Assembly (NCBI GenBank): GCA_005791875.1
Contig: SXTU01000174.1
Coordinates: 9-64,008, forward strand
DNA: 64,000 bases
Reading direction: 5' to 3'
Source of the DNA: Verrucomicrobiales bacterium
GTDB taxonomy: Bacteria > Verrucomicrobiota > Verrucomicrobiia > Limisphaerales > SXTU01
Positions within the stretch are counted from its first letter, which is position 1. Every line of letters begins with the position of its first letter. The notes beneath the pieces were generated by a model, which ran no database searches, was not told where the DNA came from, and saw only the letters and a program-made list of their open reading frames with translations. Positions 3,500 through 43,602 of the stretch are shown here, piece after piece. The position numbers were made by a program, and so were the translations under genes.

Positions 3500-3848
3500 G
3501 CGGCTAGTCGCAGAGTGTCCTCAGGACAGCCGCGGAGCGGCGACAGAAAGTAGTCCACGGCGTAAGCCGTGGGAGAGCGGGGTGGCTTTGGCGAGCCGCA
3601 GCGCGGTGGAAGACCATCCGCCCAGCATGCTCTGGCTGCGGGAATCGGCCGCCCCGCTGGGGCTCACGCTTCGGCGCAGCTACCTCGGGGCTTACGCCCC
3701 GGGCTACTTTCTGCCGCTGCTCCGCAGCCGCGAATTCCGCCTTGTCCAGAGGTCGCCTGCAAGAAACCGAGATGCGCCCAGCCAGAGAGTTTGCCAGAGA
3801 GTTTGCTTGAGGCGAGGGCGCTTCAGTCTATGATTCGGCCAACACATC

Positions 3849-5228
3849 ATGAACACGAAAAAACCTTCCACCCTCATGGCCCCCGTCACCCGCCGCACCT
3901 TCCTCCGCACCGGCGCGGTGCTCACCACCGCCGTCGCCGCACTCTCGCCGGCCGCACGCGCCCAGACCAATGCCAACAGCAAGCTCCGCATTTACCAAAT
4001 CGGCGTCGGCGGCATCGGCGGGATGCAACGCAACGGCTTAAAAGACCACCCACAGGTCGAGTGGGCCGGCTTCTGCGACGTGGACTCCCGTGAGTTGGAC
4101 AAAATCAAGAAGCAGCACCCCAACGCGTGGGCGGTGAAGGATTACCGCGAAGGCTTCGCCAAGCACGTCGCCAACTTCGACGCCGTCATTGTGGACACGC
4201 CCGACTTCCACCACGCGCCGATGATGCTCACCGCGCTTCAGCAGAAGAAACATCTCTACGGCCAAAAGCCGCTGGTGCATCAGCTCTCGGAGCTGCGGAT
4301 GATGCGCGACGCCCTCGCCGCCCGGCCCGGGCTAGTCACGCAAATGGGCAACCAGCGCGCGTGCAACACCGGCCGCATGCAGGCCGTCGAGTTGCTGCGC
4401 AAAGGCCAGCTCGGCAAACCCGTCGAGGCGTGGGTCTGGACCGGCAGCGTCGCGCGCGGCACTTACTTCGCCGACCCGTGGGCGGACTACACGCCCGCCA
4501 AGCCCGTGCCCGATTACCTCGACTGGGACCTCTGGAACGGCCCGCTCGCCAAACCGCTTCCCTACAGCGACGACCTCGCGCCGCGCCGCTGGCGTTCCTT
4601 CTGGGAGACCGGCGGCGGCCAGCTCGCCGACTGGGGCTGTCACTTGCTGGACTTGCTCTACTTCGCCTACGACCTCCCGTCGCCCGAGGCCGTCATCACG
4701 CACACGCCCAAGCCCTCGAAAGTCAGCCACACCTCGCACAACCAGAGCACCATCACCTACCCGGGTCGCGGCCAGTTCGCGCGAGACAAGTTCGTCGTCC
4801 ACTACAACGACGACGCGCTGCTCCCGTCCTTCGCCGCGCTTGGCCTGCCGCCCACGAAGCCCAACGCAAACCACACGATGGTCGTCTGCACCGAAGGCAC
4901 GCTGTTGCTCCAGGCCGACGGCAAAATCACCGTGTTCCGCAAAGGTGAGGTCGTCGCCAACGAGCCGATGCCCGAGACCACGCCGCACCATCACTGGAAG
5001 GACTGGGCCGACAACTGCCTCGGCGCGAAGAAGCATCTCTGGGCCCCGTTGACCATCGGCTGGCGCATCACCGAGCCGGCGTTGCTGGCGGTGAAGGCCA
5101 CGCGCTTCCCCGGTCAGGAACTCCGCTGGGACGGAGCGAATTTCCGGTTCACCAACCACGAGCAGGCCAACCAGGAAATTGTCTCGCGCACCTACCGCGA
5201 GGGCTTTGCGCCACCGACGGTGGCGTGA
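3849..5228 (+). CDS. Gfo/Idh/MocA-family oxidoreductase with a twin-arginine (Tat) signal
   Basis: ATG at 3849. TRRTFLRTGAVLTTAVAALSPAARA is a Tat-type leader. IYQIGVGGIGG is a Rossmann dinucleotide motif. Length 459 aa. Confidence 0.85.
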   Translation: MNTKKPSTLMAPVTRRTFLRTGAVLTTAVAALSPAARAQTNANSKLRIYQIGVGGIGGMQRNGLKDHPQVEWAGFCDVDSRELDKIKKQHPNAWAVKDYREGFAKHVANFDAVIVDTPDFHHAPMMLTALQQKKHLYGQKPLVHQLSELRMMRDALAARPGLVTQMGNQRACNTGRMQAVELLRKGQLGKPVEAWVWTGSVARGTYFADPWADYTPAKPVPDYLDWDLWNGPLAKPLPYSDDLAPRRWRSFWETGGGQLADWGCHLLDLLYFAYDLPSPEAVITHTPKPSKVSHTSHNQSTITYPGRGQFARDKFVVHYNDDALLPSFAALGLPPTKPNANHTMVVCTEGTLLLQADGKITVFRKGEVVANEPMPETTPHHHWKDWADNCLGAKKHLWAPLTIGWRITEPALLAVKATRFPGQELRWDGANFRFTNHEQANQEIVSRTYREGFAPPTVA

Positions 5229-5293
5229 CGCTTTGCGGCACTGCGGCGGCCTGGAACGGAAAAACGTAAAGCCGGCACTGCACGCCTGGCTGG

Positions 5294-6313
5294 CTAGTTC
5301 TTCGCTACGGGTGTCGGCAAGCCCAGCCGCGCGGCAACCCACTGCACCAGCTCCGCAGCGTCGGCGGGGTCGCGCCACTCCTCCAACCGCTCGCGTCGCG
5401 AGTCCGCCAACAGCAGCGCCGCCGCATATGTCGTCCGCGGCACGCCGTCTTCGAGCGTGACGACGACGTCCTCGACTTCCACGGCTTTGATCTTCGCGAA
5501 CGGAATCCGCTTCGGAGCCTTGCGTTCAAACCCGACCGGCAACGTGAGCGTCTGGTTTTGCGTGTCCACCGTCAGGTCGCCCCAGCCCTCGCGCAGCTTG
5601 CTTTTCGCATAGCCCAGCGCCCCGCCGGCCACCACCAGTCCGGCGCTCACGCTGCTAGCAATAAGGCCCGGCTCCATTCCGGTCACAACGCCCACTCCCA
5701 GCGACAGCATGAATCCGATGACCCCCGCCACGGCCGCGCCCACCACCACCGGAGGACACGCCGACAGCGGCAGCACAATCCGCCCGCCGCGCGCAGACGG
5801 CTCCGCCCCGAGGGGCATTGCAAACACGCGCCTTCTCCAGCGGCGATGAAGAGCAACGCCCCAGAACGCCACCATCACGGCGTTGCACGGCGCAAGGAAC
5901 ACGAGCAGGAACAATTCCCCGCCATCAAACCCGCGATGCAGCACCGCCCGCGTCGGGTCCTCGGGGTGGTAATAGACTGTGACCTGCTTGCCGACGGGGT
6001 ATTGCTTGACGAGCCGCCGCGCCTTCTTGCTGCCGCCGGTGAAGCCCCCGCCGAACTGGTAGTCCTTGCTCTCAAACGTCCGCTCCCCCAACGAAAAACG
6101 AAACTGCAGCTCAGCGTTGTAGTGCATTTGCCCTCCCTCATCAGGCCTAGATTCTCTTAGCTGGCTGTATGTCACCGTCCCCGGCGCAGCGCTGAAGCCC
6201 ATCGCCAAAAGTCGCATCGCCATCGTGTGCCCGAGAAAACCATCCGCGGCCAAGGTCAACATCGTCCAGAACACGCCGAAGCAGACGACGGAGAGGTTGA
6301 ATTTGAGCTTCAT
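5294..6313 (-). CDS. DUF3592-like membrane protein
   Basis: Internal ATG at 6313 (MKLKFNLSVVCFGVFWTMLTLAA, a TM helix). The beta-rich segment ends QVTVYYHPEDPTRAVL and is followed by further TM helices, which is the DUF3592 pattern. The ORF-track start at 6439 adds an unlikely Arg-rich leader. Confidence 0.7.
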   Translation of the reverse strand: MKLKFNLSVVCFGVFWTMLTLAADGFLGHTMAMRLLAMGFSAAPGTVTYSQLRESRPDEGGQMHYNAELQFRFSLGERTFESKDYQFGGGFTGGSKKARRLVKQYPVGKQVTVYYHPEDPTRAVLHRGFDGGELFLLVFLAPCNAVMVAFWGVALHRRWRRRVFAMPLGAEPSARGGRIVLPLSACPPVVVGAAVAGVIGFMLSLGVGVVTGMEPGLIASSVSAGLVVAGGALGYAKSKLREGWGDLTVDTQNQTLTLPVGFERKAPKRIPFAKIKAVEVEDVVVTLEDGVPRTTYAAALLLADSRRERLEEWRDPADAAELVQWVAARLGLPTPVAKN

Positions 6314-6471
6314 CACGCCGTTACATATCAGCAGCCGCCAGTTTCTGGAAGGTCGATTCGCCAGCAAACCGTCTAACTCGACATCGGAATGTCGAGCTAC
6401 AGCGGCAGGGTTTCTCCTGCGTTGACCGCTTTCGCCCACTCCGCTTCAATCTCAGATCGATTATTTCGCGC

Positions 6472-9693
<3,222 letters not shown>

Positions 9694-31288: not shown

Positions 31289-32629
31289 TCAGGCTGCTGC
31301 GGAATGAGCGTTCATCGGGACGATCTTACTGGCTCCCGGCGGGACGATTGCGAACCACGCTTTCGCGGCGGTTGGGGTCACGAGTTGTCGGTAGTTGCTG
31401 AAAATCATTTGAGGCGAGTTGCCGGCCTCCAACGCGACTTGCGCAACGTTTTGCGTGTCCGCGACCCGGTAGGAAATGAACGAATGCCGTAAAGCGTTGT
31501 GCTTCCATGCAAACTTGGGCAGGTCGCCGCGTTTCTCTCGCAACTGATTCACGCGTGCCGAGAGCTTCGTGAAGTGATGCCACCAACTCGTATAGTCCAT
31601 CACCTTGCCGGACGCCTGTGCGTAAAGCGCTAGCCAGGCCGCCAGATTGTCGGTGATGGGGGCGAGGCGCCGCGCCGCTGTCTTGGCATTGCTGGCTTTG
31701 ATTTCAATGTGGCGTTGCGCCAGGCTCACCTCGCTCCAATCCAGCCGTTGAATCTCCGCGGTGCGGAGTCCAGCGAAGGCGGCAATGGCAAGCCAGGAGA
31801 TCATCTCCGGGTGCGCGGCGGCCAGGATTTCCTGCATCGCCTCGGGCGTGAAAATCTCAATCTCGCAGCTGTCCTTCTTCACCTGTTGGACTGCTTCGAT
31901 TTCCTCTAGGGCGTCCTTGGGCAGATATTTCCGCTTGATGGCGAACCGAAACAAAGCAGCGATCACACGCAGATAATTGCGCTTCGTCCGTCCGCTGCCC
32001 TTCATGGCGTCGAGCCATGCTTGGATCAAGCTCCCGGACACGCCGGCGATGTTCATTTGGAAGGCGTCGGCAAAGCGCTTCAACCGGCACTCCAGGTCCT
32101 TCAAATGAACCGCGGACAAGTTCGCCGTGCGCTTGGCGGCCAGCAGATCGTCAACGGCTTGACTCACCGTCCGCTTTTGAAGCATGGCAGGATTGCGACG
32201 GCGGATAAGATCCACGGCTTCCCGGAGTGTCACGCCTTCGGGGAGCTGCTTCAGCGCGGACACATATTCGAGCACGGCGACGTTGAGCGGGAGTTTGAAG
32301 GGGCGCAGCTGTTCAAGCGCCTGGAGGTAGATGCCGCGGTCGGTTGAAGTCAGGCGGAGAACTTCATGTTCCCCGCTGGCGAACTTCGTGGCGCACAGCA
32401 CTCCTTCGCGTTTCGCCTTCTTCAAGCTGCCGAAATTCTTCTTCCTGCGCTGCGCCCCGTCGTAATAGACGAGCGTGTATTGGGTGTAAGAAACGCCGTT
32501 GGCCCGGTTCTTCCCGGTGTAAATTTTCACGGTGACGTTGCCGCGCTTGATTTCGATGGGCTTCCTCGACGAAGGGCCAGCCTGAGGTTTTATTACGGGG
32601 ATTCTCCCCAAATCGTCCCCAAAAATCAA
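31289..32629 (-). CDS. Tyrosine recombinase / phage-type integrase
   Basis: C-terminal catalytic region AFAGLRTAEIQRL.., WKHNALRHSFISYRVA, NSPQMIFSNYRQLV (the R..HxxR..Y pattern). Non-ATG start (TTG at 32629), so the start is uncertain. Confidence 0.85.
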   Translation of the reverse strand: MIFGDDLGRIPVIKPQAGPSSRKPIEIKRGNVTVKIYTGKNRANGVSYTQYTLVYYDGAQRRKKNFGSLKKAKREGVLCATKFASGEHEVLRLTSTDRGIYLQALEQLRPFKLPLNVAVLEYVSALKQLPEGVTLREAVDLIRRRNPAMLQKRTVSQAVDDLLAAKRTANLSAVHLKDLECRLKRFADAFQMNIAGVSGSLIQAWLDAMKGSGRTKRNYLRVIAALFRFAIKRKYLPKDALEEIEAVQQVKKDSCEIEIFTPEAMQEILAAAHPEMISWLAIAAFAGLRTAEIQRLDWSEVSLAQRHIEIKASNAKTAARRLAPITDNLAAWLALYAQASGKVMDYTSWWHHFTKLSARVNQLREKRGDLPKFAWKHNALRHSFISYRVADTQNVAQVALEAGNSPQMIFSNYRQLVTPTAAKAWFAIVPPGASKIVPMNAHSAAA

Positions 32630-32655
32630 TGGCTACTAAAATCACCATAAAATAG

Positions 32656-32692
32656 TGGTGCCGGTGGCGGGACTCGAACCCACACGACGTTT
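32656..32692 (-). repeat. Displaced 3' end of tRNA-Leu (att direct repeat, distal copy)
   Basis: tggtgccggtggcgggactcgaacccacacgacgttt matches 43221-43257 at 35 of 37 positions. The 5' half of a tRNA does not follow it. Confidence 0.85.
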
Positions 32693-32770
32693 CGCACGCT
32701 TGGAGTTTGCAGAAACCTCATAAAAACCAACGTTTACAGGCATTGAAAACATGCTAGACATCAGCAACAC

Positions 32771-32790
32771 GTTATGCGATGACGTTATGC
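32771..32790 (+). promoter_or_regulatory. Candidate integrase arm-type sites (GTTATGC x2, 13-bp spacing), left end
   Basis: GTTATGCgatgacGTTATGC lies immediately before the integrase ATG (32792). The same pair, with the same spacing and orientation, lies at 43138-43157. Confidence 0.5.
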
Positions 32791-32791
32791 C

Positions 32792-34006
32792 ATGTCTAGC
32801 ATCCACCAACAACCGGGCAAGCCCTGCTATTTTTGCGCCTACTACGACCCCGAGGGCTACCGCCGTTTCCGCTCCACGGGCACCGGCAACCGCGCCGTCG
32901 CCGGCATCATTTGCACCGCCGTCGAGCGCGCATCCCAGCTCGCGCGTCAGGGCAAGCTGTCCGAGCAGAAGGCGCAAAGCCTCGTTCGGGAGACAAAGGC
33001 CACCGTTGCCGAGAATCCCAAACACGGGCCGCTGATGGCGGACATGGCGGACAAGACGCTCCGCCCCATCGTCGAGGAGTTCGTCAGGATGGCCGGCGGT
33101 GAGCTTACGAGCTTCACGGTGAAGCTCTGGCTCGAAACGTGGCTCGCGGGCAAGACGGACGCCAGCAAGGCCACCCGCATCGAATACAAGCGCATCGTGG
33201 ACCTGTTCGTGAAGTTCCTTGGGGCTCGAGCGGAGCGACCGCTGGCGACGGTGCAGGCGGTCCACGTCGAGCAGTTCAAGGCGCACCTGGCTGGCCGCGT
33301 GGGCGCTTCGACGATCAACAAGTCCTTGAAGGTCTTGAAGGGCGCGTTCGGCAGCGCCGTCGCCAAGCGGCAACTGGAGTTCAGCCCGGCGGAACACGTC
33401 GAGTTCAACGAGGCGGCGTCATCCCAGCGCCGTGCCTTCACGCTCGCGGAAATCAAGAAGCTGCTGGCGGTCGCGGAGAGCGACTGGCGCACGATGATTT
33501 TGCTGGCGCTATACAGCGGTCAGAGAATGCAGGATTGCGCGCGGCTGACGTGGCGCGAGGTGGACCTACTGCAAGGCACCATCAGCCTCGAAACGGAGAA
33601 GACCGGGCGCAAACAGGCGATTCCCATTGCCGAGCCGCTGGCAAAGCATCTGGCAACACTGGCCGGCGATGACCCCGACGCGCCGCTCTGCCCAAACTTT
33701 CGGGGGAAGCCATCGGGCAGGCTGTCGGCTAAATTCTACGATCTGATGGTCAAGGCCGGGCTGGTGCCGCCCCGCAATCACGAGAGCAAGGGCACCGGGC
33801 GCGACGGCGCGCGGGAGATGAGCAAGGTGAGCTTCCACAGCCTCAGGCACACCGCCACGAGCCTCTTGAAGTCCGCCGGGGTGAGCGACTCCGTGGCTAT
33901 GGACATCATCGGGCACGAGACGGCGGCGGTGTCCCGCAGCTACACGCACATCGCGGACGACGCCAAGCGCGCGGCGGTCAACAAACTGCCCGATGTCACC
34001 GGCTGA
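32792..34006 (+). CDS. Tyrosine recombinase / site-specific integrase
   Basis: 404 aa. LALYSGQRMQDCARLTW, SFHSLRHTATSLLKSAGV and IIGHETAAVSRSYTH form the R..HxxR..H..Y catalytic pattern. Confidence 0.9.
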   Translation: MSSIHQQPGKPCYFCAYYDPEGYRRFRSTGTGNRAVAGIICTAVERASQLARQGKLSEQKAQSLVRETKATVAENPKHGPLMADMADKTLRPIVEEFVRMAGGELTSFTVKLWLETWLAGKTDASKATRIEYKRIVDLFVKFLGARAERPLATVQAVHVEQFKAHLAGRVGASTINKSLKVLKGAFGSAVAKRQLEFSPAEHVEFNEAASSQRRAFTLAEIKKLLAVAESDWRTMILLALYSGQRMQDCARLTWREVDLLQGTISLETEKTGRKQAIPIAEPLAKHLATLAGDDPDAPLCPNFRGKPSGRLSAKFYDLMVKAGLVPPRNHESKGTGRDGAREMSKVSFHSLRHTATSLLKSAGVSDSVAMDIIGHETAAVSRSYTHIADDAKRAAVNKLPDVTG

Positions 34007-34334
34007 CGGATTGGCGGCCGGCGCGCTGCCCGAACTGCTCGGGGTGCCGACGCTCCAGAATCCAGCGATAGCCCGCGCTCCCGGTTCCGTCCGCTTGGAT
34101 GACTTTCAGCGCCTTGAACAGGAACTCCGCCTGCGCCTGCTCGATGACCAGCCTGAGCTGTGGGTTCCGCCGTTTGGCCGCGCGGAAAGACTCGTAGTTG
34201 ACCGGTGGAGTCATCAGGTGGCAGGCCGAGCGCTCCGGCATCCCTCGCGCCACGTGCTGCGCGATGGCCTCGACCACGGCCAGCGTGATCTGCGCCGGGC
34301 GTCCACCGCGCCGCTGCTTTCGTGGGGTGCTCAT
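33996..34334 (-). CDS. Small HTH DNA-binding protein (terminase-small-subunit/transposase-HTH-like)
   Basis: The ATG at 34334 gives MSTPRKQRRGGRPAQITLAVVEAIAQHVARGMPERSACHL... It is the last gene of the minus-strand rep operon. Its 3' end overlaps the integrase stop by about 10 nt. Confidence 0.5.
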   Translation of the reverse strand: MSTPRKQRRGGRPAQITLAVVEAIAQHVARGMPERSACHLMTPPVNYESFRAAKRRNPQLRLVIEQAQAEFLFKALKVIQADGTGSAGYRWILERRHPEQFGQRAGRQSVSR

Positions 34335-34346
34335 GGCTTCTCTTCT

Positions 34347-34372
34347 CGCGCGCACGCGCGCGCGTGCGCGCG
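34347..34372. repeat. 26-bp perfect palindrome of alternating purine-pyrimidine sequence
   Basis: cgcgcgcacgcgcgcgcgtgcgcgcg equals its own reverse complement. It lies 13 nt upstream of the HTH gene start and downstream of the DnaC-like stop. Confidence 0.85.
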
Positions 34373-34408
34373 TTGCTGGTGCAAACTGCGTGGCTGGGGC
34401 ATGGGGTT

Positions 34409-35149
34409 TCAGACGCCGAGTGTTGTCTTCGTCAGCGGAAACTGCACGGGCTCGCAGAACTCGCGCAGCCGACGAATGAGAGCGTCTGCAACGTGGCCGG
34501 TGTAGCGCTCAGCCAGCTCATCGGGCGCAAGTTGCGTCGTGACGATGATCGGGCGGAACTGCGCCGTGCGCCGTTCCACCAGGCCGAAAAGTTCTGTCTG
34601 CACGCGTTCTGTGGCCGGCTCCTTGCCCAAATCATCGAAGAGCAGCGCCTCGGCGCGCTCATACCGCTTCAGCCAGGCCGTTCCCTCGAAGCGGGAAAAC
34701 CGGGTAGCAATCTCGTCTCCGAAAGCGACAGCGTGGATGGCCTCGCACCGCACTCCGGCGTCCACAAGCTGGCGGAGCAGCAGGCAGGCACTCCGAGTCT
34801 TCCCCTGGCCGGAGTCGCCGTAGAGAATCAGCCCGCGCGGGCCGCGCGGCCATGCCAGCACTCGGCGCAACGGCTCTTGCGGCATCCGAGCAGGGTCGCT
34901 CTCACGATATAGCGGTGGGCAGACTCGCTGCCACTCCAGCGCCCGCCGCCGAGCAGCCTCGGCAGTCCGAGCAGCTTCCTCCGCCACCCGCTGCGCTTCC
35001 GCCGCTGCTGCGGAACAGCCTGGACAGGCATGTCGGGTAAAGACCTCGCGGCCTTCAAACAGAAGCGGGGTGTAGGTGAAGGGTTCGCGGCAGACGGTGC
35101 AAATCGCCGTCCGGCTACCAGGCTGATGGGTGTCGTGTGTGGTTTCCAT
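34409..35149 (-). CDS. DnaC/IstB-like AAA+ ATPase (helicase-loader-like) with an N-terminal Cys4 zinc ribbon
   Basis: ATG at 35149. CTVCREPF..HACPGC is a zinc ribbon. Walker A is LILYGDSGQGKTRSA and Walker B is ALLFDDLGKE. Confidence 0.8.
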   Translation of the reverse strand: METTHDTHQPGSRTAICTVCREPFTYTPLLFEGREVFTRHACPGCSAAAAEAQRVAEEAARTAEAARRRALEWQRVCPPLYRESDPARMPQEPLRRVLAWPRGPRGLILYGDSGQGKTRSACLLLRQLVDAGVRCEAIHAVAFGDEIATRFSRFEGTAWLKRYERAEALLFDDLGKEPATERVQTELFGLVERRTAQFRPIIVTTQLAPDELAERYTGHVADALIRRLREFCEPVQFPLTKTTLGV

Positions 35150-35650
35150 TTCGTTTGTCCTTCGTTTTGCCCTTCGGCTCGAACAGCCCTTGCCATCCGT
35201 TGCGAATTGAAGCGGCGAGAATCTCCGTGGCGGTCGGTTCATCAAACTGCGCCAGCCAGTCGAGTTGCTCCTGAAAGAGCCCACGCCACTCCTTCACCTT
35301 GCGCAACCCGCGCCTGTGCTTCATCCAGTCGCCCCACTTGCTCAGGAACGGGACGGTGTTCAGATGCCCCGGAAGCTTGAGCTCGGAGAGGTCGTCACAA
35401 CCGCGCGCGGAGCCGCGCGTCTCCTTCCCAAGGAGAACCTTCAAGGGAGAACCTTTGTCCCCCTCCGTTTCGGGTGGGTGGTTGGGCATCCGTTTCGCGT
35501 GGGTGTCCCCCGGTTTGAATACCTGCCCCTCCGTTTCGGGTGGGCATTCCTTTCGGGTAGGCAGACCACCGGGCAGGGGATTCAGCACCACGCGGAAGAT
35601 GCTGGTCCTGCCTGGGCGGACTTCCTTGGTGATGAAGCCGCGCGCCAGCA
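35115..35650 (-). pseudogene. C-terminal part of a winged-helix replication-initiator-like gene, separated from its 5' part by the inversion
   Basis: The frame continues ..LLARGFITKEVRPGRTSIFRVVLNPLPGG.. into ORF 35115..35591 (..LKLPGHLNTVPFLSKWGDWMKHRRGLRKVKEW..IRNGWQGLFEPK). No start codon of its own precedes the wing segment. Confidence 0.7.
35460..35562. repeat. Iteron-like direct repeats inside the rep coding region
   Basis: CCCCTCCGTTTCGGGTGGG occurs perfectly at 35460-35478 and 35526-35544. Degenerate copies are tccgtttcgcgtggg (about 35489-35503) and cctttcgggtagg (about 35549-35561). Confidence 0.7.
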
Positions 35651-35660
35651 GGAGCCGCAG
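35651..35660. repeat. Left copy of the 10-nt inverted repeat at the inversion junction
   Basis: GGAGCCGCAG is the reverse complement of CTGCGGCTCC at 40528-40537. Confidence 0.9.
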
Positions 35661-36949
35661 GCGGGGTCCAGCACGGTCACGCGGCAGAGCCGTTCGTGGA
35701 AGGCGTTGACCTCGGCGCGGGCTTTCTTCAGGTCACCCGCGCGGGCGTGCGTGACGGCGGCGACGCGGACGCTGGCCCACTCGGCGCGGAGCGGCTCGAT
35801 GACGGTGGGGAGGACGAGGCGCTCGACATAGGCGCGGGGCGTGTAGTGCGCGCCGAGTTGGTGGCGCTCGTCCGGATTTAAGGCGCGTTCCAGCAGCGTG
35901 CCGAAGATGGCCGGCTCGACGCTGCCCCAGTGCTGCCGGGCGGCGTTTTTCAGCAGGCCCAGTTGCAGGCCGTTGATGGGGAGGACGGTGTCGTCGGCGA
36001 AGAGGCCGCCGTTGAACTGGAGCAGCTTCTTGCGGAGGACGACGGAGATGCCCTTGCCCGTGCCAGCGTTCATCTCGCGGAAGAGCTGCCGCAGCACGTC
36101 CTCGAAGCCTTCGCCGCTGGCCGGAAGCAAGTCGAGCAGCTCGGTGAAGCTGTGCTTGGGCAGCAGCTCGACATCCTCCGCGAACATGCAGAAGAGGCAG
36201 CGGGTGAGAAACTCGGCGACGACCTTGGGCGAATGGCCGGACTGCTCGAAAGACTTGGCCAGCGCGGCGAGGTGCCCGGCGACTTCGCGGGTGACTTCGG
36301 CGGAGCGCTTGGCGGGGTCGAGCGCGGCGGGGTCCGTCCAGATGAGTCGGAGGCGCGCGCGGATGGCGTCGTCCGCCAGTTCCGCGAGCCGGATGCGGAA
36401 GGCGCGGGGATTGGGGAAGGGCAGGTAGGCTTTGCCCGCCTGCGTGAAGTCGGCGAACACCTCGAAGGAGTGGCCGACATCCAAGACGATGATGAAGGGC
36501 GGGTTCTCGTCACCGGGCAACGCGCGGACGTAGCGCTCGGCCTGGCCGCGTGCCTTGAGCATCGCCTCGCCCCAGGCGTCGGTGCCGCGCACGGGCTGGG
36601 AGGATTTCTTGCTGGTGGTGATGCCGGCTTCCACAGCGACGAGTTCGAGCTGCGAGAGTTCGGCGCGGGTCTCCTGAAACTGCTTCGATTCGAGGACGAA
36701 GCAGCCGCGCTTGTAGAGGTCAATGCGGCCGTTGGTGGTCGTGCCGTCGGCGTGGTGCTCGGTGACGGGGAACTCAAAGAAGTAACCGGCGTGCGGGTGG
36801 TTGTCCGGGCGTGGGACTTGGAGCAGGTCGCAGAGTTCAGCGAGGAAAAGCTGGCTGTTGGCGCGCTCGGACGGCGCGGCATTCGACCAGTGGTTAATGA
36901 AGCCAGCGACATCGGACGGGGATGCGTTGGCTGGCTTTGGCTCGCTCAT
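35651..36949 (-). pseudogene. MmeI-family type IIG/IIL restriction-modification enzyme, N-terminal fragment (endonuclease + spacer + start of the MTase)
   Basis: ATG at 36949 (MSEPKPANASPSDVAGFINHW..). GRIDLYKRGCFVLESK carries the D-X9-E-X-K nuclease motif. GAHYTPRAYV is present. The homologous part ends ..VLDPACGS in the middle of SAM motif I and is then followed by 23 unrelated codons. Confidence 0.8.
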
Positions 36950-37029
36950 GTCGGTGCAAGACGGTGGCAAGGGCGTGGGTGGGCGGCAAGTTCTTACGTG
37001 GTTGTCCGATGGCTGTTTCGCATTCACGG

Positions 37030-37620
37030 GCTTGCCGCCAGCGTGACCCACGCCTACGGTGGCGGCGGTTGGACCCGGAACTGCCACTGCGGGCACTGCC
37101 TTAACAGGCACCCAAGCGGAGGGAAAAGCCTCCACCAGTTTGAAACCGGAACCCCCGGAGCAGACTGGCGCAGCGGATCCAAGTGCGAGTCTTGGGCGCA
37201 GTCCAACCACGCATTCCCTGCCTGTTCGGAGCGCGGGCAGGGTGTGGCCTGCCGCGCGCGGAACCCTCCTTGGGCAATTGAAGCCCTCTGGACTGGAACC
37301 GCGCGCGGCCTTTGCCTTGCTTGACGCTTTGCGACTCCTACACTGGCTCCGCTGCGGAAGCCGCGCCAGGAACTATCACCGCCCGAGACGAGCGACAAGG
37401 CTCTGGGATGGCGGCGGAGCCGGGTGCAAGTCCCGGTCTGAGCGCGCCCGCCGCAGCATTTCCTCTCCTCGCGCGAACTTGGTCCCGCTTGCCACCGCCC
37501 TCGCGCGTGCCTACGGTCGCTCCGGCTGCGGGGCCGGTAGCGGAAACTATCACCGGCTCCGATGAGCGAACAGGCTCTGAAATGCCGGCGGAGGCGGAAG
37601 TGCGTGCAAGCGCGCCCGCC
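37030..37620. repeat. Three degenerate direct repeats (about 130-170 bp each) in a 1-kb non-coding gap
   Basis: Shared motifs, same order: GCTTGCC(G/A)CC; CCTAC(GG/AC)T at 37053, 37337 and 37510; GGAA(A)CT(G/A)(C/T)CAC at 37077, 37369 and 37542; GTGC(A/G)AG at 37183, 37424 and 37604; GCGCGCCCGCC at 37442 and 37610. Confidence 0.65.
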
Positions 37621-37946
37621 CTAACCCCAGCCCCGCAGTCATCCCTCGCGCTCGTCCGCTGCTCCTTCGTGCGAGCGGCGGGGTGCGCCGTATCTCGGCG
37701 ATCCGTCTCTCCAGGCCAAGATGGTGCCGTCCGGGGCCTCCAGCACCGCGCTGTTGTCCTCTGGAAATTCCCTCCACTTCGCAGCCGCCCACAACTGCCC
37801 TGCTGGCGTCAATGTCTCTCTAGGCGCGCCGGCCGGCTTCAAGTTGTCTGGCTCGTTCGGCATTGCACCCCACTCTTTCCCTGCCGTCGGGGAAGTCAAC
37901 GACATCGTTGACATTCTTAACCATGTGAGACATTGTTTGTAGCACG

Positions 37947-38204
37947 ATGAAGACCGCCACCGTCAGAGACTTGCGGAACCAGTTCCCCCGCGTCGCCGCG
38001 TGGATCGAGAACGGCGAGGAAGTTGGCATCACCAAGGCCGGCAAGCTCTTTGCCCGCCTCGTGCCCGCCAAGCCCGCCAAGCCGCCCAAGCTCGTGAAGC
38101 CCGACATCATGGCCCGGCTCAAGGAGACGTGGGGCGACCGCGTGTTTTCCGCCAAGGAAGTCGCCGCCATGCGCGCGGACGAGCTGGAGGGCGAGGAGGG
38201 ATGA
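37947..38204 (+). CDS. Phd/YefM-type antitoxin
   Basis: 85 aa. MKTATVRDLRNQFPRVAAWIENGEEVGITKAGKLFARLVP is a typical Phd/YefM N-terminus. Its stop overlaps the toxin ATG (ATGA). Confidence 0.8.
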   Translation: MKTATVRDLRNQFPRVAAWIENGEEVGITKAGKLFARLVPAKPAKPPKLVKPDIMARLKETWGDRVFSAKEVAAMRADELEGEEG

Positions 38205-38653
38205 TCGCCTTCCCGGACACCTCCTTCCTGTGCGCCATCTACCGCCGGCAGGACAATTCCCCGGCTGCTGCCGCTCACTTCAAGGCCATGAAGGAGGCCC
38301 TGCACGTCTCCACCCTGCTGCTCTACGAGTTCCGCCAGAGCGTGCGCTTCCAAGTCTGGCTGAACGCGCGGGACAAGACCCGCGGCTACCCGCAGGCGGA
38401 CGGCGACCAGGCGTTGGCTGACTTGCAAACCGATCTGGACACCGGCGCGGTGGTGCTGGTGGCGGCGGAATGGCCGGACGTGCATAGCCGCGCGGAAACG
38501 CTCTCCCGGCAGCACACGACGGCGGGCGGGCACCGTAGTCTCGATGTGCTCCACGTCGCCACGGCGCTGCATCTGGAGGTCGAGGAATTCCTCACGTTCG
38601 ACGCGAACCAGCGCAAGCTCGCCGCCGCCGCAGGGTTGAAGGTGAAGCCATGA
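38201..38653 (+). CDS. vapC: PIN-domain toxin (VapC-like)
   Basis: The ATG at 38201 gives MIAFPDTSFLCAIY.. (first acidic residue). LLLYEF, LDVLHVATAL and LTFDANQ supply the remaining PIN acidic residues. Confidence 0.8.
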   Translation: MIAFPDTSFLCAIYRRQDNSPAAAAHFKAMKEALHVSTLLLYEFRQSVRFQVWLNARDKTRGYPQADGDQALADLQTDLDTGAVVLVAAEWPDVHSRAETLSRQHTTAGGHRSLDVLHVATALHLEVEEFLTFDANQRKLAAAAGLKVKP

Positions 38654-39684
38654 AGCGCGGGAGCAAGCCGGGCAAGAAGAGCGGCGGGAAGGCCAACAGC
38701 ACGAAGGCAGAGCTAGCGGTCGCTGCGGTTCCAACCGCATCGGACTGGATGGATGCAAAGTGGCAAGCACGGCTCGACCGGGAACAAAAGGCCCGCGAGC
38801 AAGAGGCGCGACGGCTCGGCATGACCGTCGCCCATCTTGATGCGATACAAGAGTCCTGGCTGCGCAACTCAGAGTTAAAGCAGCTCCGGGCGAAGTATGA
38901 CGACCCGGACATGGCAGGAAGAAACTGCTTGGAGTTGCTCGACCTTGTCCCGCACGGCACTTCGTCACCTTGGCCGTCTGATGAGCTGCGAGAGATTGTC
39001 ATCAAGGCAGCCGACAAGCTGCTGGAAGTTTCGACCTCGCAGCAGAGAAGTGAGCGAGCGAGAGGCATCGCCAATATGACGCTCGCCTACCTCGTCGAGG
39101 TCGTTGCCAAGCGAGCCTTCGCAGCCATCCGCAATTCGCTCAAGGCTGAACCCAACGACGCCACGCAATACCTCGTTGATGCACTGGTGAACTGCTGTGT
39201 GGAGTTCCGTGAGCTGGTGCAGGAGGGACCGAAGCGATTCAAACCTTGGACCCGCCAACGGATTTTTCTTCCGTCTCTCAGGGCCTACACGGACGCTTTC
39301 GATGATGACTTTGAGCGGACCAGGATGGACGCTGAACTTGCGCGAGACACAGGTGTCAATCTGAGTGGCAAAAGCAAGCCACGCCTACAGGGAGCAACTC
39401 TCGAAGTGGCCGAGGCGTTGCAGATAACTCGATGGCCGGAACTCACGAATGACGGGAAGGAATGGCCGGAACTCACGAAGGATACGGCGTCACTTTTGGT
39501 ATGGTGGAATTCGCGGATCGAACCGTGGCTGCTGATCCAGCGGGAGCGGCTCTTGAAGTCGAGTCGTTTCACCAACATCGTCGGAAAGACAAAATACAAG
39601 AGCGATGACGCGCGCTTGAAGGCAGTGCTCCGCGCGTGCAAGCAGTCCCTCAGAACCCTCGCCCGCCCTCGTGCAATAAAATAG
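38650..39684 (+). CDS. Hypothetical 344-aa protein, translationally coupled to vapC
   Basis: The ATG at 38650 overlaps the vapC stop (ATGA). It has a Lys/Gly-rich N-terminus and a predicted helical body; I recognise no motif. A tandem WPELT(N/K)D..WPELTKD duplication is present. G+C is visibly lower than in the flanks. Confidence 0.65.
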   Translation: MKRGSKPGKKSGGKANSTKAELAVAAVPTASDWMDAKWQARLDREQKAREQEARRLGMTVAHLDAIQESWLRNSELKQLRAKYDDPDMAGRNCLELLDLVPHGTSSPWPSDELREIVIKAADKLLEVSTSQQRSERARGIANMTLAYLVEVVAKRAFAAIRNSLKAEPNDATQYLVDALVNCCVEFRELVQEGPKRFKPWTRQRIFLPSLRAYTDAFDDDFERTRMDAELARDTGVNLSGKSKPRLQGATLEVAEALQITRWPELTNDGKEWPELTKDTASLLVWWNSRIEPWLLIQRERLLKSSRFTNIVGKTKYKSDDARLKAVLRACKQSLRTLARPRAIK

Positions 39685-39742
39685 CCCTTATTACGGAAGC
39701 AGACTCTTTGCATCTGCCCGCGACTTCCGCGACATAGGCGGC

Positions 39743-40210
39743 GTGAAACAGGCTACACGCAAACAAGCCGCCGGACGGAACGGCTCTACAGATTCCGCCA
39801 CTGCGCTCGCGCCCGCTGCCATCAGCGGCGCAACTCCTCCGCCACCTGCTGACACCGGCTTCGAGAAAAGGCTGGAGGAAATGCTGCGCGGCGTGCCGCC
39901 CTTCCTGAGGCTGCCAAGGCCCCGCGAGCGGTGTGCGTTCACGTCAATGTCGCGCGGCGCGATGTATGAACTCATCGCGCCATCGGAACGCAACGGGTGG
40001 CGTCCGCCGGTGCGAGCGTCCTACCGAAAGAGCCGGCGCGGCGCGCGGCGCGGCACCTGGTCCATCCCCGCCCGCGAACTGTTCACCCACCTGCTTTCGC
40101 TGGAGGCCGATTCCGTCGAGCGCTTCGTGGTGGACTCGCAGGCGCGCGCGGTGAGGGTGGCGGAGAAGCGCGGCGGGCGTGTCGAGCAGTCGGCGGGAGG
40201 AGAGCAGTGA
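39743..40210 (+). CDS. AlpA/excisionase-like HTH protein
   Basis: FLRLPRPRERCAFTSMSRGAMYELI....ASYRKSRRGARRGTWSIPARELFTHL resembles the MGE excisionase-type HTH (target in, sugar-phosphate clamp RG..R). GTG start, so the start is uncertain. Confidence 0.45.
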   Translation: MKQATRKQAAGRNGSTDSATALAPAAISGATPPPPADTGFEKRLEEMLRGVPPFLRLPRPRERCAFTSMSRGAMYELIAPSERNGWRPPVRASYRKSRRGARRGTWSIPARELFTHLLSLEADSVERFVVDSQARAVRVAEKRGGRVEQSAGGEQ

Positions 40211-40314
40211 GCCAGCGCGCGGATTCGCAAGCCGGCCATCCGACCGCGCCCGAGTGAAATGAAATGCCCGCCGGTCTTTGGCGAGACGCACGGCGGGCAA
40301 GAACACTGACACCG

Positions 40315-40537
40315 ATGGATTTACTCGAAACAGCAGCGGCGGGCAAGCCGGGCGAACGCAACTCCCCTCGCGCGGCCCTGTTCATCGGCGCTTGGATAGA
40401 CGACGCGGACCTTTCCCCAGCGCAATTCCGGGTGCTCTGCCGCATCGCGCGGCGTGGCGATTGCACGGAGTCAGTCCCCAACATCGCCAAGGGATGCCAT
40501 CTGCATCCCGACACAGTGGAGAGCGCGCTGCGGCTCC
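40315..40537 (+). pseudogene. N-terminal part of the winged-helix replication-initiator-like gene (5' fragment)
   Basis: The ATG at 40315 gives MDLLETAAAGKPGERNSPRAALFIGAWIDDADLSPAQFRVLCRIARRGDCTESVPNIAKGCHLHPDTVESALRL. The HTH is cut before its wing. The continuation is found at 35650 on the minus strand. Confidence 0.7.
40528..40537. repeat. Right copy of the 10-nt inverted repeat at the inversion junction
   Basis: CTGCGGCTCC is the reverse complement of 35651-35660. Confidence 0.9.
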
Positions 40538-41482
40538 GGCAACTTCCTCTACGTCGCCCTGCAACACCTGAAGATTCTGGAGGGCGAGGTGCTGGACGCC
40601 GCCGCGCAGTTCGGCGAGAACTTCAAGCTGGAGCTGGAGACGCACACCATTGACCCGCACCAGTTCCTGGGCATCGAGCTGAATCCCCGCGCCGCGTCCG
40701 TCGCCGAGCTGGTGCTGTGGATTGGCTACCTGCAATGGCATTTCAAGCTCCACGGCACGCGCACGCCGCCCGAGCCGATTCTGCGCGCCTTCAAAAACAT
40801 CGAGTGCCGCGACGCCGTGCTGGCCTACGATGGCGAGCCGCAACCCGCGAAGGACGAGCACGGCCAGCCCATCACCGCATGGGACCGCCAGAGTAACAAG
40901 ACCGACATGGTGACGGGCCGCGCCGTGCCGGACGAAACCAAGCGCGTCCCGCTGCTCACCTACAAGAACCCACGCCCGGCACAGTGGCCTGCCGCCGACT
41001 ACATTGTTGGCAATCCGCCGTTCTTGGGCAAAGGGAAGCTGCGCGAATCGCTTGGAGACGGATACGTTCAAACATTGCGAGCTGCTTACCCTTCTGTGCC
41101 GGAGTCCGCCGACTTTGTTATGTATTGGTGGCACAAGGCAGCAGAACTGGCCCGCGCCGACAAGGTGAAGCGCTTCGGCCTCATCACCACCAACAGCGTG
41201 TCGCAAACTTTCAACCGCCGAGTAGTCGAAACTCAGCTGTCCTCACAACCGCCGCTGTCGCTTCTCTTCGCCATTCCCGACCACCCGTGGGTGGACACTG
41301 TAGATGGGGCGGCAGTGCGGATTGCGATGACCGTGGGGGCCTCAGGAGTCCACGGAGGAGAACTGCTGGAGTCCGCGAAAGAGGAGCCGCATGAAGATGG
41401 TTCTGTGAAAGTTACTTTCAGCGCTCGGGCTGGACGTATTTCCGCAGATGTCACTCTCGGGCCGAGTGCTTCGGATATCTGA
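40538..41482 (+). pseudogene. MmeI-family RM enzyme, middle fragment (gamma-class N6-adenine methyltransferase core)
   Basis: It continues motif I (GNFLYVALQHL), then FLGIELNPRAASVAELVLWIGYLQW and motif IV VGNPPFLGKGKL, then DHPWVDTVDGAAVRIAMTV. It stops at 41482 where low-GC DNA begins. Confidence 0.8.
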
Positions 41483-41554
41483 GGCGCAGCCGACGAACAG
41501 CAGACTAGAGGCGGCGACGGCTAGCCGATCTGGAATGTAGCGAGTAATTTTCAT
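41480..41554 (-). pseudogene. Truncated lipoprotein gene (signal peptide and lipobox only)
   Basis: MKITRYIPDRLAVAASSLLFVGC(AS), with lipobox LFVGC. Beyond about 41,480 the frame runs antisense through the RM fragment and is meaningless. Confidence 0.4.
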
Positions 41555-41588
41555 GGCTTGTTCCTATTCGTTGATCTTGACCGGACGG

Positions 41589-42461
41589 CTACTTCGTCGC
41601 CACTCTGATCTGAAGGGCAGTGATCACGTTTATCATCAGGTGAGGTTCGAGCGGCAAAGATCGCACATCTATGCCTCTGTGGTCTGAAAGCAGTTTTGCA
41701 TAGTCAGAGATAAGCAGTTTGATGTAATTGGCATCTCCAACAAGCGGGGCAAACCAGCCTTCTGGAACTAGTTTGTCAACGCCTGGTAGAAAGGCAACAT
41801 CCACTCCAAAAGTTTTTACAAACGCGGCCAAAGTTGAGAATTTTTGGATCTGTTTTCCGGAGTCGTCAAACCATACGAAATGTTCAGGCACTGTCAAAAG
41901 GTAGAATGTCCCGGTTTGCTGCCCTGGAAACAGTGCAACAGGGTCACCGACCAAATGGATGTTGGTAATGGATGCGATTTTCCAATTGAGTGTAGTCACT
42001 GAAGTTAACGCACCACTGCTGCCAACGGGCCTACTTTCTGTAAGCAGGTCATCATCCAAGCCCGCTGAATTGAAAACTATCGCTGATACCAATGGATTGG
42101 CGAGTTTTATGGTCGCATAGGATGCAAGTCCACCCCCGAGTGAATGGCCGGTCAGTATGATTTTGTATCCCAGACCGGGCTGGGTGAATCGCTCAACGAA
42201 AGGACGCGCAAGTTCTACGGCTTCCGGGTATTGTTTGGCTATCACCCCTTTCAGATAGGCGTTCGCGACATCAGTAAGCAGATCCTTTATCAATCTCCAT
42301 CCGTGTTCCGTTCCAGCAAATGCAATCACAAGAGGCTTGGTGTTTACATTGATGTAAACGTGTAAATGCAATCCTGATTTCTTCTCTTGTATGCTTTTGA
42401 GTCCTTTTAGACTAACCCCGTCAGGGCAATTGGATAAGTCCAGAGTTTCCCAGTTTCGCAC
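41589..42461 (-). CDS. Alpha/beta-hydrolase, class-3-lipase/DUF2974-like (GHSLGG serine nucleophile)
   Basis: PLVIAFAGTEH..KIILTGHSLGGGLASYA is the lipase_3-type nucleophile elbow. No signal peptide. The only start is the GTG at the cassette edge, so the gene may be 5'-truncated. G+C is far lower than in the flanks: one hand-counted 60-nt line gave about 43 % against about 62 % in the RM fragment. Confidence 0.7.
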   Translation of the reverse strand: MRNWETLDLSNCPDGVSLKGLKSIQEKKSGLHLHVYINVNTKPLVIAFAGTEHGWRLIKDLLTDVANAYLKGVIAKQYPEAVELARPFVERFTQPGLGYKIILTGHSLGGGLASYATIKLANPLVSAIVFNSAGLDDDLLTESRPVGSSGALTSVTTLNWKIASITNIHLVGDPVALFPGQQTGTFYLLTVPEHFVWFDDSGKQIQKFSTLAAFVKTFGVDVAFLPGVDKLVPEGWFAPLVGDANYIKLLISDYAKLLSDHRGIDVRSLPLEPHLMINVITALQIRVATK

Positions 42462-42479
42462 GGACTGAGAGTCGTCATA

Positions 42480-43087
42480 GGCTGGACGCCCACCGCAAGC
42501 GCGCCCAAGCCCAGCACGGCCTGACCTTGACCGGCCTTTACAACGTCCTCGAAAAACTCCGCGCCAACGAACCGCTCACGCCCAAGGAAAAGTTGGTTCA
42601 CGACGCGGGCCTCGTCTCCGTCCTCAAGCAGCTCCACGACGACCTCGACCGCGCCGTGGCGGACGCCTACGGCTGGCCTTGGCCGTTGAGCGACGAGGAA
42701 ATCCTGACGCGCCTCGTGGCCTTGAACGCCGAGCGCGCCGCCGAGGAAGCGCGCGGCCTCATCCGCTGGCTGCGCCCGGATTACCAGCTCCGCGCCGTCG
42801 CCGGAGCCAAGGAAGCCAGCCCCACCCTCGCTCTGACCGAAGGCACCGCGAAGCCCGGCAAGCAGCCCAAAGCCAAGCCCGCCAAACTCCCGTGGCCCAA
42901 AACCCTCGCCGCCCGCGCCCGCGCCGTGGAAACCGTCCTCCGCACCCTCGCCCAGCCCGCCACACCAGAGACGCTCGCCAAGCACTTCCTCCGCGCGAAA
43001 CCCGCCGACGTGCAGGAGATTCTCGAAACCCTCGTCGCCCTCGGCAAAGCCCGGGCGGGGAAGCGTGAAGGGACGTTCTCGGCGTAG
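42480..43087 (+). pseudogene. MmeI-family/type IIG RM enzyme, C-terminal fragment
   Basis: ..LDAHRKRAQAQHGLTLTGLYNVLEKLRANEPLTPKEKLVHDAGLVSVLKQLHDDLDRAVADAYGW..LIRWLRPDYQ is the conserved C-terminal tail of large type IIG methyltransferase-endonucleases as I recall it. It has no start codon of its own. Confidence 0.65.
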
Positions 43088-43137
43088 GCCAATGCTGGGT
43101 GCATCGAGCAAAACAGGCACCTTGGAGACATGCCTCA

Positions 43138-43157
43138 GTTATGCCACAGCGTTATGC
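43138..43157 (+). promoter_or_regulatory. Candidate integrase arm-type sites (GTTATGC x2, 13-bp spacing), right end
   Basis: GTTATGCcacagcGTTATGC lies 64 nt inside the tRNA-proximal att repeat. It mirrors 32771-32790. Confidence 0.5.
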
Positions 43158-43220
43158 CGATGGTGGCTAGCAGGGAGCCGGAGGCGCAAAAACAGCACAT
43201 TTGCTCAACGAAATGTGAAT

Positions 43221-43308
<88 letters not shown>

Positions 43309-43602
43309 AATCAACTGGCCCCCGACACTTGCGGTTTTTCCGGCCACCGAGAACTTAGCGCGGCCCACTCTTTCTGCCGCTTCGGCACCGTGCAACTCGC
43401 AGCGGATCGCAATCCTCAGGCCCCTTCTGAAATCACGGTAGTGGACGCTACAGAGAGTCCAAGGAGGGCACAAGCGCCAGTGCGGGCCACTGCTCGTTGG
43501 CCGCGTGCTCAATCGAAGATTTGTTGCCGGATGGGGTGATCCAACCCATCTACCACCAAGAGATACCACTGCTGCACCACCTCGCGCCTGCTGGCAATAC
43601 GG

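Follow-up and report, generated by a model that had tools for sequence, protein, structure and literature searches.

What divides two divergent genes of a small genomic island so that the beginning of each lies against the wrong part of the other? The question is raised by four open reading frames (ORFs) in a 64,000-nt stretch of contig SXTU01000174.1 (assembly GCA_005791875.1) from an uncultured Verrucomicrobiales bacterium; this whole stretch is called the window below. The four ORFs are parts of two genes, one for an MmeI-family restriction-modification (RM) enzyme and one, rep, for a winged-helix replication initiator resembling the O protein of lambda. We find that a segment of 4,887 bp, at positions 35651 to 40537, is inverted and that its ends lie, to the base, in two inverted copies of a 10-nt sequence. 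As an explanation, we judge it highly probable that the segment was inverted spontaneously, in a single event at short homology, on an island at tRNA-Leu that is satellite-like and in decay.

The repeat is exact: GGAGCCGCAG at 35651-35660 is the reverse complement of CTGCGGCTCC at 40528-40537. The bases flanking both copies are unpaired, so that the repeat is exactly 10 nt long and cannot be extended, and within the window the 10-mer is present at these two sites only. On the rep side it spells codons 72 to 75 (A-L-R-L), and on the RM side it spells codons of the S-adenosylmethionine motif I (A-C-G-S). When the segment is flipped in silico, one open frame runs over each junction. The RM junction then reads ..GCC TGC GGC TCC GGC AAC.. 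(ACGSGN), within a frame of 747 aa that extends from the MSEPK.. start at 36949 to a stop at 41482 and comprises the N-terminal and middle parts of the enzyme (433 codons from 36949 to 35651, then 314 and a stop from 40538 to 41482). The rep junction reads ..GCG CTG CGG CTC CTG CTG GCG.. (ALRLLLA), within a frame from the M at 40315 (MDLLE..) to a stop at 35115, where 40315-40537 and 35650-35115 together give 252 codons and a stop. A sequence-only reading of this DNA had already reported the repeat, the fragment coordinates and the two restored frames; its repeat is correct to the base, its coordinates all agree with our codon counts, and both frames reappeared in our flip.

Homologous proteins place the breaks independently of the repeat. 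The closest intact homologue of the RM enzyme, P0001, aligns to the window by tblastn in pieces on opposite strands, with aa 1-459 on 37027..35651 (minus strand, 91% identity) and aa 447-771 on 40499..41473 (plus strand), and it is because these pieces end and begin there that we place the RM break at the 10-nt repeat. The re-inverted 747-aa protein has at least 120 homologues among the matches listed, those named being mostly from Verrucomicrobiota. They are 629 to 1295 aa long (most about 1150 to 1190 aa), cover 70 to 100% of the 747-aa protein (most 97 to 100%, in one local alignment) and are 66 to 89% identical to it. The Pfam family MmeI_Mtase matches residues 409-701 of this protein continuously through the junction at residues 433/434, and the crystallized MmeI (5HR4) likewise aligns in one stretch (query 227-504) through ..LDPACGSGNFL.. 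at the same point. Only after re-inversion do the nuclease domain, the helical spacer and a gamma-class methyltransferase with motif I (DPACGxGNF) and motif IV (NPPF) stand in one polypeptide.

The rep gene behaves in the same way. The first 71 aa of its homologue P0121 align by tblastn to 40315..40527 on the plus strand (96% identity), and aa 72-252 align to 35660..35118 on the minus strand (88% identity). The re-inverted 252-aa protein has two intact, collinear homologues, P0121 (252 aa, 90% identity) and P0122 (256 aa, 78%), and both read ..DTVE(R/S)..R.LL.RGFITKE.. uninterrupted over the junction. PHROG 678, "replication initiation O-like," covers residues 35-249 as one stretch, and a MarR/HTH_36 match at residues 49-104 spans the junction only after re-inversion. 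The same is true of the general layout of a lambda-O-like initiator, in which an N-terminal winged helix is joined to a C-terminal domain and a DnaC-like gene follows immediately downstream. A separate feature of the rep 3' fragment is a set of three copies of a 19-nt unit (CCCCTCCGTTTCGGGTGGG) at 35460-35544, which encode a repeated PPETEG motif; this peptide motif is also found in P0121 and P0122.

Comparison at the DNA level gives the same breakpoints. The related islands L011 and L013, which represent the backbone, and L007, a locus with an intact RM gene, each give two alignments to the window, one on either strand, which adjoin at the 10-mer; those of L011 and L013 end at 35660 and 35659, respectively. 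Against the re-inverted sequence, L011, L013 and L007 align as single pieces of 3322, 3278 and 2242 nt. Around both re-inverted junctions the alignments are gap-free, with no bases gained or lost, and the exchange was therefore reciprocal and conservative. Gene order agrees as well. L011, L012 and L013, the loci that encode P0121 and P0122, carry on one strand a toxin-antitoxin (TA) pair, a 340- to 345-aa homologue of the conserved gene orf344, a small ORF, rep, an IstB/DnaC-like gene and a 112- to 127-aa gene, with the integrase gene (int) convergent; this is the operon that re-inversion recreates. Since many independent relatives are intact and both frames are broken in the window, the arrangement in the window is the derived state.

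The sequence-only reading had proposed that one recombination between a chance 10-bp inverted repeat in two divergent genes inactivated both, and the protein, DNA and synteny tests bear this out, the re-inverted proteins aligning collinearly and over their full length to single intact proteins. Its operon, phd-vapC-orf344-xis-rep-dnaC-HTH, stands in part. The order is intact in L011, L012 and L013, whereas the label xis finds no support, the small ORF at 39743-40210 having no family match in Pfam, PHROGs or PADLOC, and the final helix-turn-helix gene matches small-terminase families (PHROG 4102). The gene orf344 itself gave no Pfam, PHROG or PADLOC match.

A 10-nt repeat is in itself unremarkable, as two or more copies of the 10-mer occur in 16% of shuffles, which is within chance. 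What goes beyond chance is the position of the two copies, which coincides exactly with the breaks in independent alignments, of protein and of DNA, to intact relatives. Arithmetic from base composition puts the expected probability of 10-nt inverted identity at two homology-fixed breakpoints at about 0.27^10, or roughly 2e-6, and the 10-mer is therefore the crossover site and no coincidence. The RM-side copy is ordinary motif-I coding sequence, identical in L007 and matching at 9 of 10 positions in the RM gene of L008; to judge from these relatives, it is the ancestral coding sequence. Related rep genes carry CTGCGGTCCC and GTGCGGTTCC, each an 8/10 match.

The original layout may be pictured, from left to right, as int pointing rightward; facing it, the leftward genes for the small-terminase-like (TerS-like) protein, the DnaC-like protein, the O-like Rep, the small ORF, orf344, vapC and phd; then a control region of about 1 kb; and, beyond it, the MmeI-family RM gene running rightward to the tRNA. 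A single reciprocal, conservative exchange between two chance inverted 10-nt sequences would then have flipped the segment, and as its route we favor recombinase-independent short-homology (illegitimate) recombination or replication template switching. Chance substrates are plentiful, because the GC-rich 10.5-kb island contains about 224 exact inverted 10-mer pairs. No dedicated site is indicated, because the repeat is non-extendable, no insertion sequence (IS) copy lies at either junction, and the likeness of the junctions to the attachment-site (att) core of the island is at random level (12/15 and 10/15, within the range of random island 40-mers, with a mode of 10-11). There is no transposase gene among the island ORFs and family matches.

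The flipped piece contains the control region of about 1 kb, with the presumed promoters of both gene sets, and the 5' portions of RM and rep, each of which is now joined to the antisense or out-of-frame rest of the other gene. In RM the cut falls within the methyltransferase, and the 433-aa 5' part enters antisense rep and meets a stop after 22 codons. In rep it falls within the winged helix, and the 74-aa 5' part enters RM sequence out of frame and meets a stop after 38. Both genes are thus dead, and the island would no longer be able to start its own replication. The RM promoter side would now have the rep 3' part and the dnaC-like and TerS-like genes downstream of it. The island retains int, both att ends (a 37-nt repeat) and the TA pair.

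The RM gene was also hit by a second event, beyond what the sequence-only reading had described. Residues 772-975 of P0001, which include the whole target recognition domain (TRD; MmeI_TRD, Pfam 780-969), have no counterpart in the window by tblastn, and their position is occupied by 987 nt of 48%-GC DNA (41474-42460). Re-inversion alone would therefore restore no RM enzyme, since the whole TRD has been replaced by a lipase cassette. As it stands, the gene reads as a pseudogene: the inversion has split it, its TRD is gone, and three pieces are left. The cassette consists of an intact class-3 lipase ORF, for which Pfam Lipase_3 is the only match (PADLOC and PHROGs gave none), and, after it, about 25 initial codons of an ORF with a lipobox (MKITRYIPDRLAVAASSLLFVGC..), whose frame then continues into antisense RM sequence. 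This layout of lipase and lipoprotein is reminiscent, by analogy, of a lipase effector with its lipoprotein immunity partner.

A metagenome is a place where mis-assemblies occur, and the window comes from one, so a chimeric join or a mis-oriented segment has to be considered. The same element was located in other assemblies by exact-protein look-up of orf344 and of the DnaC-like gene. A 178-kb k141 contig in ENA (ERZ27257035, MEGAHIT, k141 being read from contig names; L001/L016) carries both junctions. GenBank contig SXGS01241629 (L017), 100% identical to the window over 32552-37120, crosses the left junction, and the Logan assembly of SRR8894379 (L002), 100% identical over 37976-43311, crosses the right one. 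All assemblies that reach a junction show the inverted orientation. Several short contigs of the element do end inside the region, but both junctions recur at 100% identity in assemblies of different samples made with different assemblers (ENA, Logan and GenBank). The 10-nt repeat is, moreover, far below the k-mer sizes that permit de Bruijn mis-joins and shorter than any k-mer of the assemblers used, the k of the Logan assembler being presumably 31. A random mis-join, finally, would not look like a reciprocal exchange that is exact to the base and keeps the frame at either end. The artefact, an alternative that the sequence-only reading had left standing, is contradicted by these separately named assemblies, two GenBank metagenomes among them, and we give it almost no credence. 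The recurrent contig ends, at 36980, 37976, 40266 and 40377, were also considered as a sign of mixed orientations and rejected as such: all of them lie away from the junctions, and the one at 36980 is accounted for by a 4.5-kb indel polymorphism described below.

A real inversion could still be the work of an enzyme, either as a programmed, reversible inverton that switches the RM gene and the island replication gene together, the sampled population or populations being in the OFF state, or as a single accident at two pseudo-att sites sharing a 10-nt overlap, catalyzed by the island tyrosine integrase or another host recombinase. The inverton has some appeal: the segment ends precisely at inverted repeats that keep the frame of RM and of rep alike, a gene for a recombinase lies close by, and RM systems are frequent inverton targets (PMC7672463; bioRxiv 10.1101/2023.03.11.532203). 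Invertons, the products of invertase-driven phase variation, include the Type I hsdS "epigenetic invertons" (PMC7672463) and intragenic and partial-intergenic invertons (bioRxiv 10.1101/2023.03.11.532203), and the locus in the window is like them in having a repeat-bounded segment whose orientation decides whether an RM gene is intact, with a recombinase gene as neighbor. Here, in contrast, a single orientation is seen, and contigs pass through the junctions in every assembly that reaches them, whereas de Bruijn contigs from a mixed population would tend to end there; look-ups of the element turned up no contig or protein in the alternative orientation. Related islands show the intact arrangement. 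The repeat, only 10 nt long and non-extendable, is unconserved in related rep genes (8/10), and the two copies are chance identities in two unrelated genes rather than conserved sites or homologous TRD modules. The ON state would restore rep, but the RM gene would still be a pseudogene without its whole TRD and would yield no working enzyme. Single orientation, unconserved 10-mer and TRD loss thus make the invertible segment, likewise suggested by the sequence-only reading, very unlikely. As for the recombinase, the tyrosine integrase is the island's own and occupies the same place in relatives without an RM gene; no serine invertase was detected. That integrase is also an argument for a one-off catalyzed event: its gene (32792-34006) is 1.6 kb away from the left junction. 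Further, the exchange conserved every base, as site-specific recombination does, and a second, weak integrase-like gene is present at 31289-32611. The junctions are, however, no more similar to the att core than random island 40-mers, for which reason the pseudo-site idea was rejected; no dyad-symmetric arms surround the 10-mer, and the 10-mer is ordinary conserved coding sequence of the RM family. We regard enzymatic catalysis as improbable.

Besides the nearby integrase gene, four points weigh against a spontaneous, one-time inversion. The assemblies with the exact element have neighboring accession numbers and thus probably represent one study and one population. Orientation is known from assembled contigs, and a minority of the opposite orientation is possible. 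Rep relatives match the 10-mer at only 8 of 10 positions, so that full 10-nt identity before the event is presumed. Lastly, the un-inverted allele of the same element was not found, the best intact relatives being 89 to 90% identical. Members of the 90% cluster of the rep homologue gave the L011-type allele or fragments and no un-inverted allele of this element. Among JGI metagenome contigs, the exact pattern of left outer flank plus 10-mer, which fits either orientation, gave one unrelated chance match (L015), and a genome contig scan with orf344 gave one Limisphaerales metagenome-assembled genome (MAG) contig only, identical to L012. Neither orientation of the element occurs in the scanned JGI metagenome and genome collections, and these scans are uninformative. 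Within the sampled population, the inverted state appears fixed.

Spontaneous inversions between short inverted repeats are known from E. coli genetics, and inversions in E. coli lac reportedly involved repeats of 12 to 23 bp. The event in the window resembles them in several respects: the same very short sequence is present, in opposite orientations, at its two breakpoints; the exchange was reciprocal and left the number of bases unchanged; neither a copy of a mobile element nor a dedicated site is present; relatives are un-inverted, with one orientation found in the assemblies; and the outcome is rare and effectively irreversible. Unlike the laboratory lac inversions, it is a natural event in an uncultured Verrucomicrobia population and was not selected. 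Its 10-nt repeat is at or below the short end reported, and two divergent genes were cut at once. The RM gene, for its part, resembles MmeI-family Type IIL enzymes (MmeI, PDB 5HR4) in having, after re-inversion, the MmeI_N, MmeI_hel and MmeI_Mtase families with DPACGSGNF and NPPF, along with a conserved C-terminal region; it differs in being a three-piece pseudogene that has lost its entire TRD, while its intact relatives are about 1150 to 1190 aa long.

The island itself extends from about 32693 to 43220, between a 3' fragment of tRNA-Leu and tRNA-Leu(UAA), in a Limisphaerales-type (Verrucomicrobiota) genome. The features discussed here are collected in Table 1.

Table 1. Features of the island and of the inverted segment, with coordinates in the window
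Feature	Position	Strand	Evidence
Island end: 37-nt copy of the tRNA-Leu 3' part (att remnant), direct repeat of 43221-43257	32656..32692		35/37 identical; none expected by chance
Island tyrosine integrase, 404 aa	32792..34006	+	Pfam Phage_integrase, E 7e-19; same position and orientation in L011-L013
Small-terminase-like/HTH protein, 119 aa, final backbone operon gene	33996..34355	-	PHROG 4102 "terminase small subunit," E 2.5e-9; 112-aa counterpart in L011-L013
DnaC/IstB-like helicase loader	34409..35284	-	Pfam IstB_IS21; PHROG 50 "DnaC-like helicase loader," E 4e-28
rep 3' fragment (O-like, winged helix-turn-helix initiator), codons 75-252	35115..35650	-	tblastn with P0121; L011 and L013 DNA alignments
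Left copy of 10-nt repeat, GGAGCCGCAG, left inversion junction	35651..35660		Sequence, re-inversion, 10-mer count
RM 5' fragment, aa 1-433: nuclease domain, helical spacer, methyltransferase to motif I ..DPACGS	35651..36949	-	Pfam MmeI_N, MmeI_hel; tblastn
Non-coding region of ~1 kb between divergent gene sets (presumed divergent promoters)	36950..37946		Holds 73-nt direct repeat
phd-like antitoxin (37947-38204) and PIN/VapC toxin (38201-38653)	37947..38653	+	Pfam PhdYeFM_antitox (weak, below cut-off), PIN, E 6e-10
orf344, conserved backbone gene	38650..39684	+	65% identical homologue at same position in L014 (same contig as L012); 345-aa gene of L011 aligns at DNA level
Small ORF upstream of rep	39743..40210	+	Similar-size gene at same position in L011
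rep 5' fragment (codons 1-74 plus 1 nt), cut within winged helix	40315..40537	+	tblastn with P0121; MarR/HTH_36, PHROG 678
Right copy of 10-nt repeat, CTGCGGCTCC, right inversion junction	40528..40537		Same 10-mer in intact RM gene of L007
RM middle fragment, motif I ..GNF through NPPF to end of methyltransferase domain	40538..41482	+	tblastn; Pfam MmeI_Mtase
Low-GC (48%) foreign cassette replacing whole RM TRD: class-3 lipase ORF (41589-42461) and 5' end of lipoprotein-like ORF (from 41554)	41474..42460	-	tblastn, Pfam, GC
RM C-terminal fragment	42461..43087	+	tblastn: P0001 aa 976-1186 on 42461..43084, 91% identity
tRNA-Leu(UAA), integration site and other island end	43221..43308	-	ARAGORN; Rfam tRNA

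The gene set adjoining tRNA-Leu(UAA), namely, an integrase, a TerS-like protein, an O-like initiator, a DnaC-like loader, a TA pair and a variable slot for defence cargo, in about 10.5 kb, is like that of phage satellites, phage-inducible chromosomal islands and small tRNA islands. The likeness is known from gene content alone, and the replication module is broken here. The backbone is common to a Limisphaerales MAG contig, and the relatives L011-L013 combine it with different TA and cargo genes. In the region between the divergent gene sets, a 73-nt direct repeat (37351-37423 and 37525-37597, 73% identical, at a spacing of 174 nt) lies between the RM start and phd. It is conserved in the related island L011 (4400-4568) and could be a regulatory or origin element. 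The 1-kb region gave no Rfam match, the only Rfam match being the tRNA gene at the island end, and no match to a sigma-70 or terminator consensus. Immediately outside the att remnant lies the second integrase-like gene mentioned above (minus strand, 440 aa), whose Phage_integrase match covers half the profile; it may be what remains of a neighboring or tandem island at the same tRNA site.

The element also varies within the population. The contig L001 has 4,506 extra bp (its positions 3825-8330, 62% GC) at window position 36980/36981, 31 nt upstream of the RM start codon, with 3 to 4 nt of microhomology at the ends. This segment contains Type I HsdR fragments on opposite strands (T1R_D3-like and T1RH-like_C), a helicase motif-VI-like fragment and ORFs of 489 and 164 aa; beyond the HsdR and helicase fragments, PADLOC, PHROGs and Pfam gave nothing for the rest. 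The contig L017 agrees with the shorter version in the window, and L003 (GenBank SXGR01073425) begins exactly at 36980. The population is therefore polymorphic at this site, and the long and the short variant alike carry the inversion. Between L003 and the window there are 15 differences, all grouped within 37281-38024, in the DNA ahead of phd and in the first part of that gene; the rest is identical. Such a pattern suggests that a variant strain co-exists or that a small patch was exchanged by recombination. Several changes mark the decay of the cargo side of the island: the inversion, the replacement of the TRD and the 4,506-bp segment of L001.

Events of this type are well known, as are the two gene families and the way in which defence cargo decays on islands, and what we describe is an ordinary scar of gene decay and no new system. 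It nevertheless carries a warning for annotation, as gene callers report four "genes" here (455, 158, 342 and 186 aa) that are fragments of two. If a reversible two-gene inverton were the true explanation, very unlikely as we hold it to be, a recombinase would flip the segment through the 10-nt core and couple island replication (rep ON/OFF) to the state of the defence cargo, so that a satellite-like island of Verrucomicrobia would have its mobility under the control of a phase switch. If the split instead arose through a single spontaneous inversion, as we think highly probable, the locus would be a clean natural case in which a very short chance inverted repeat kills two divergent genes and immobilizes a mobile island in one step.

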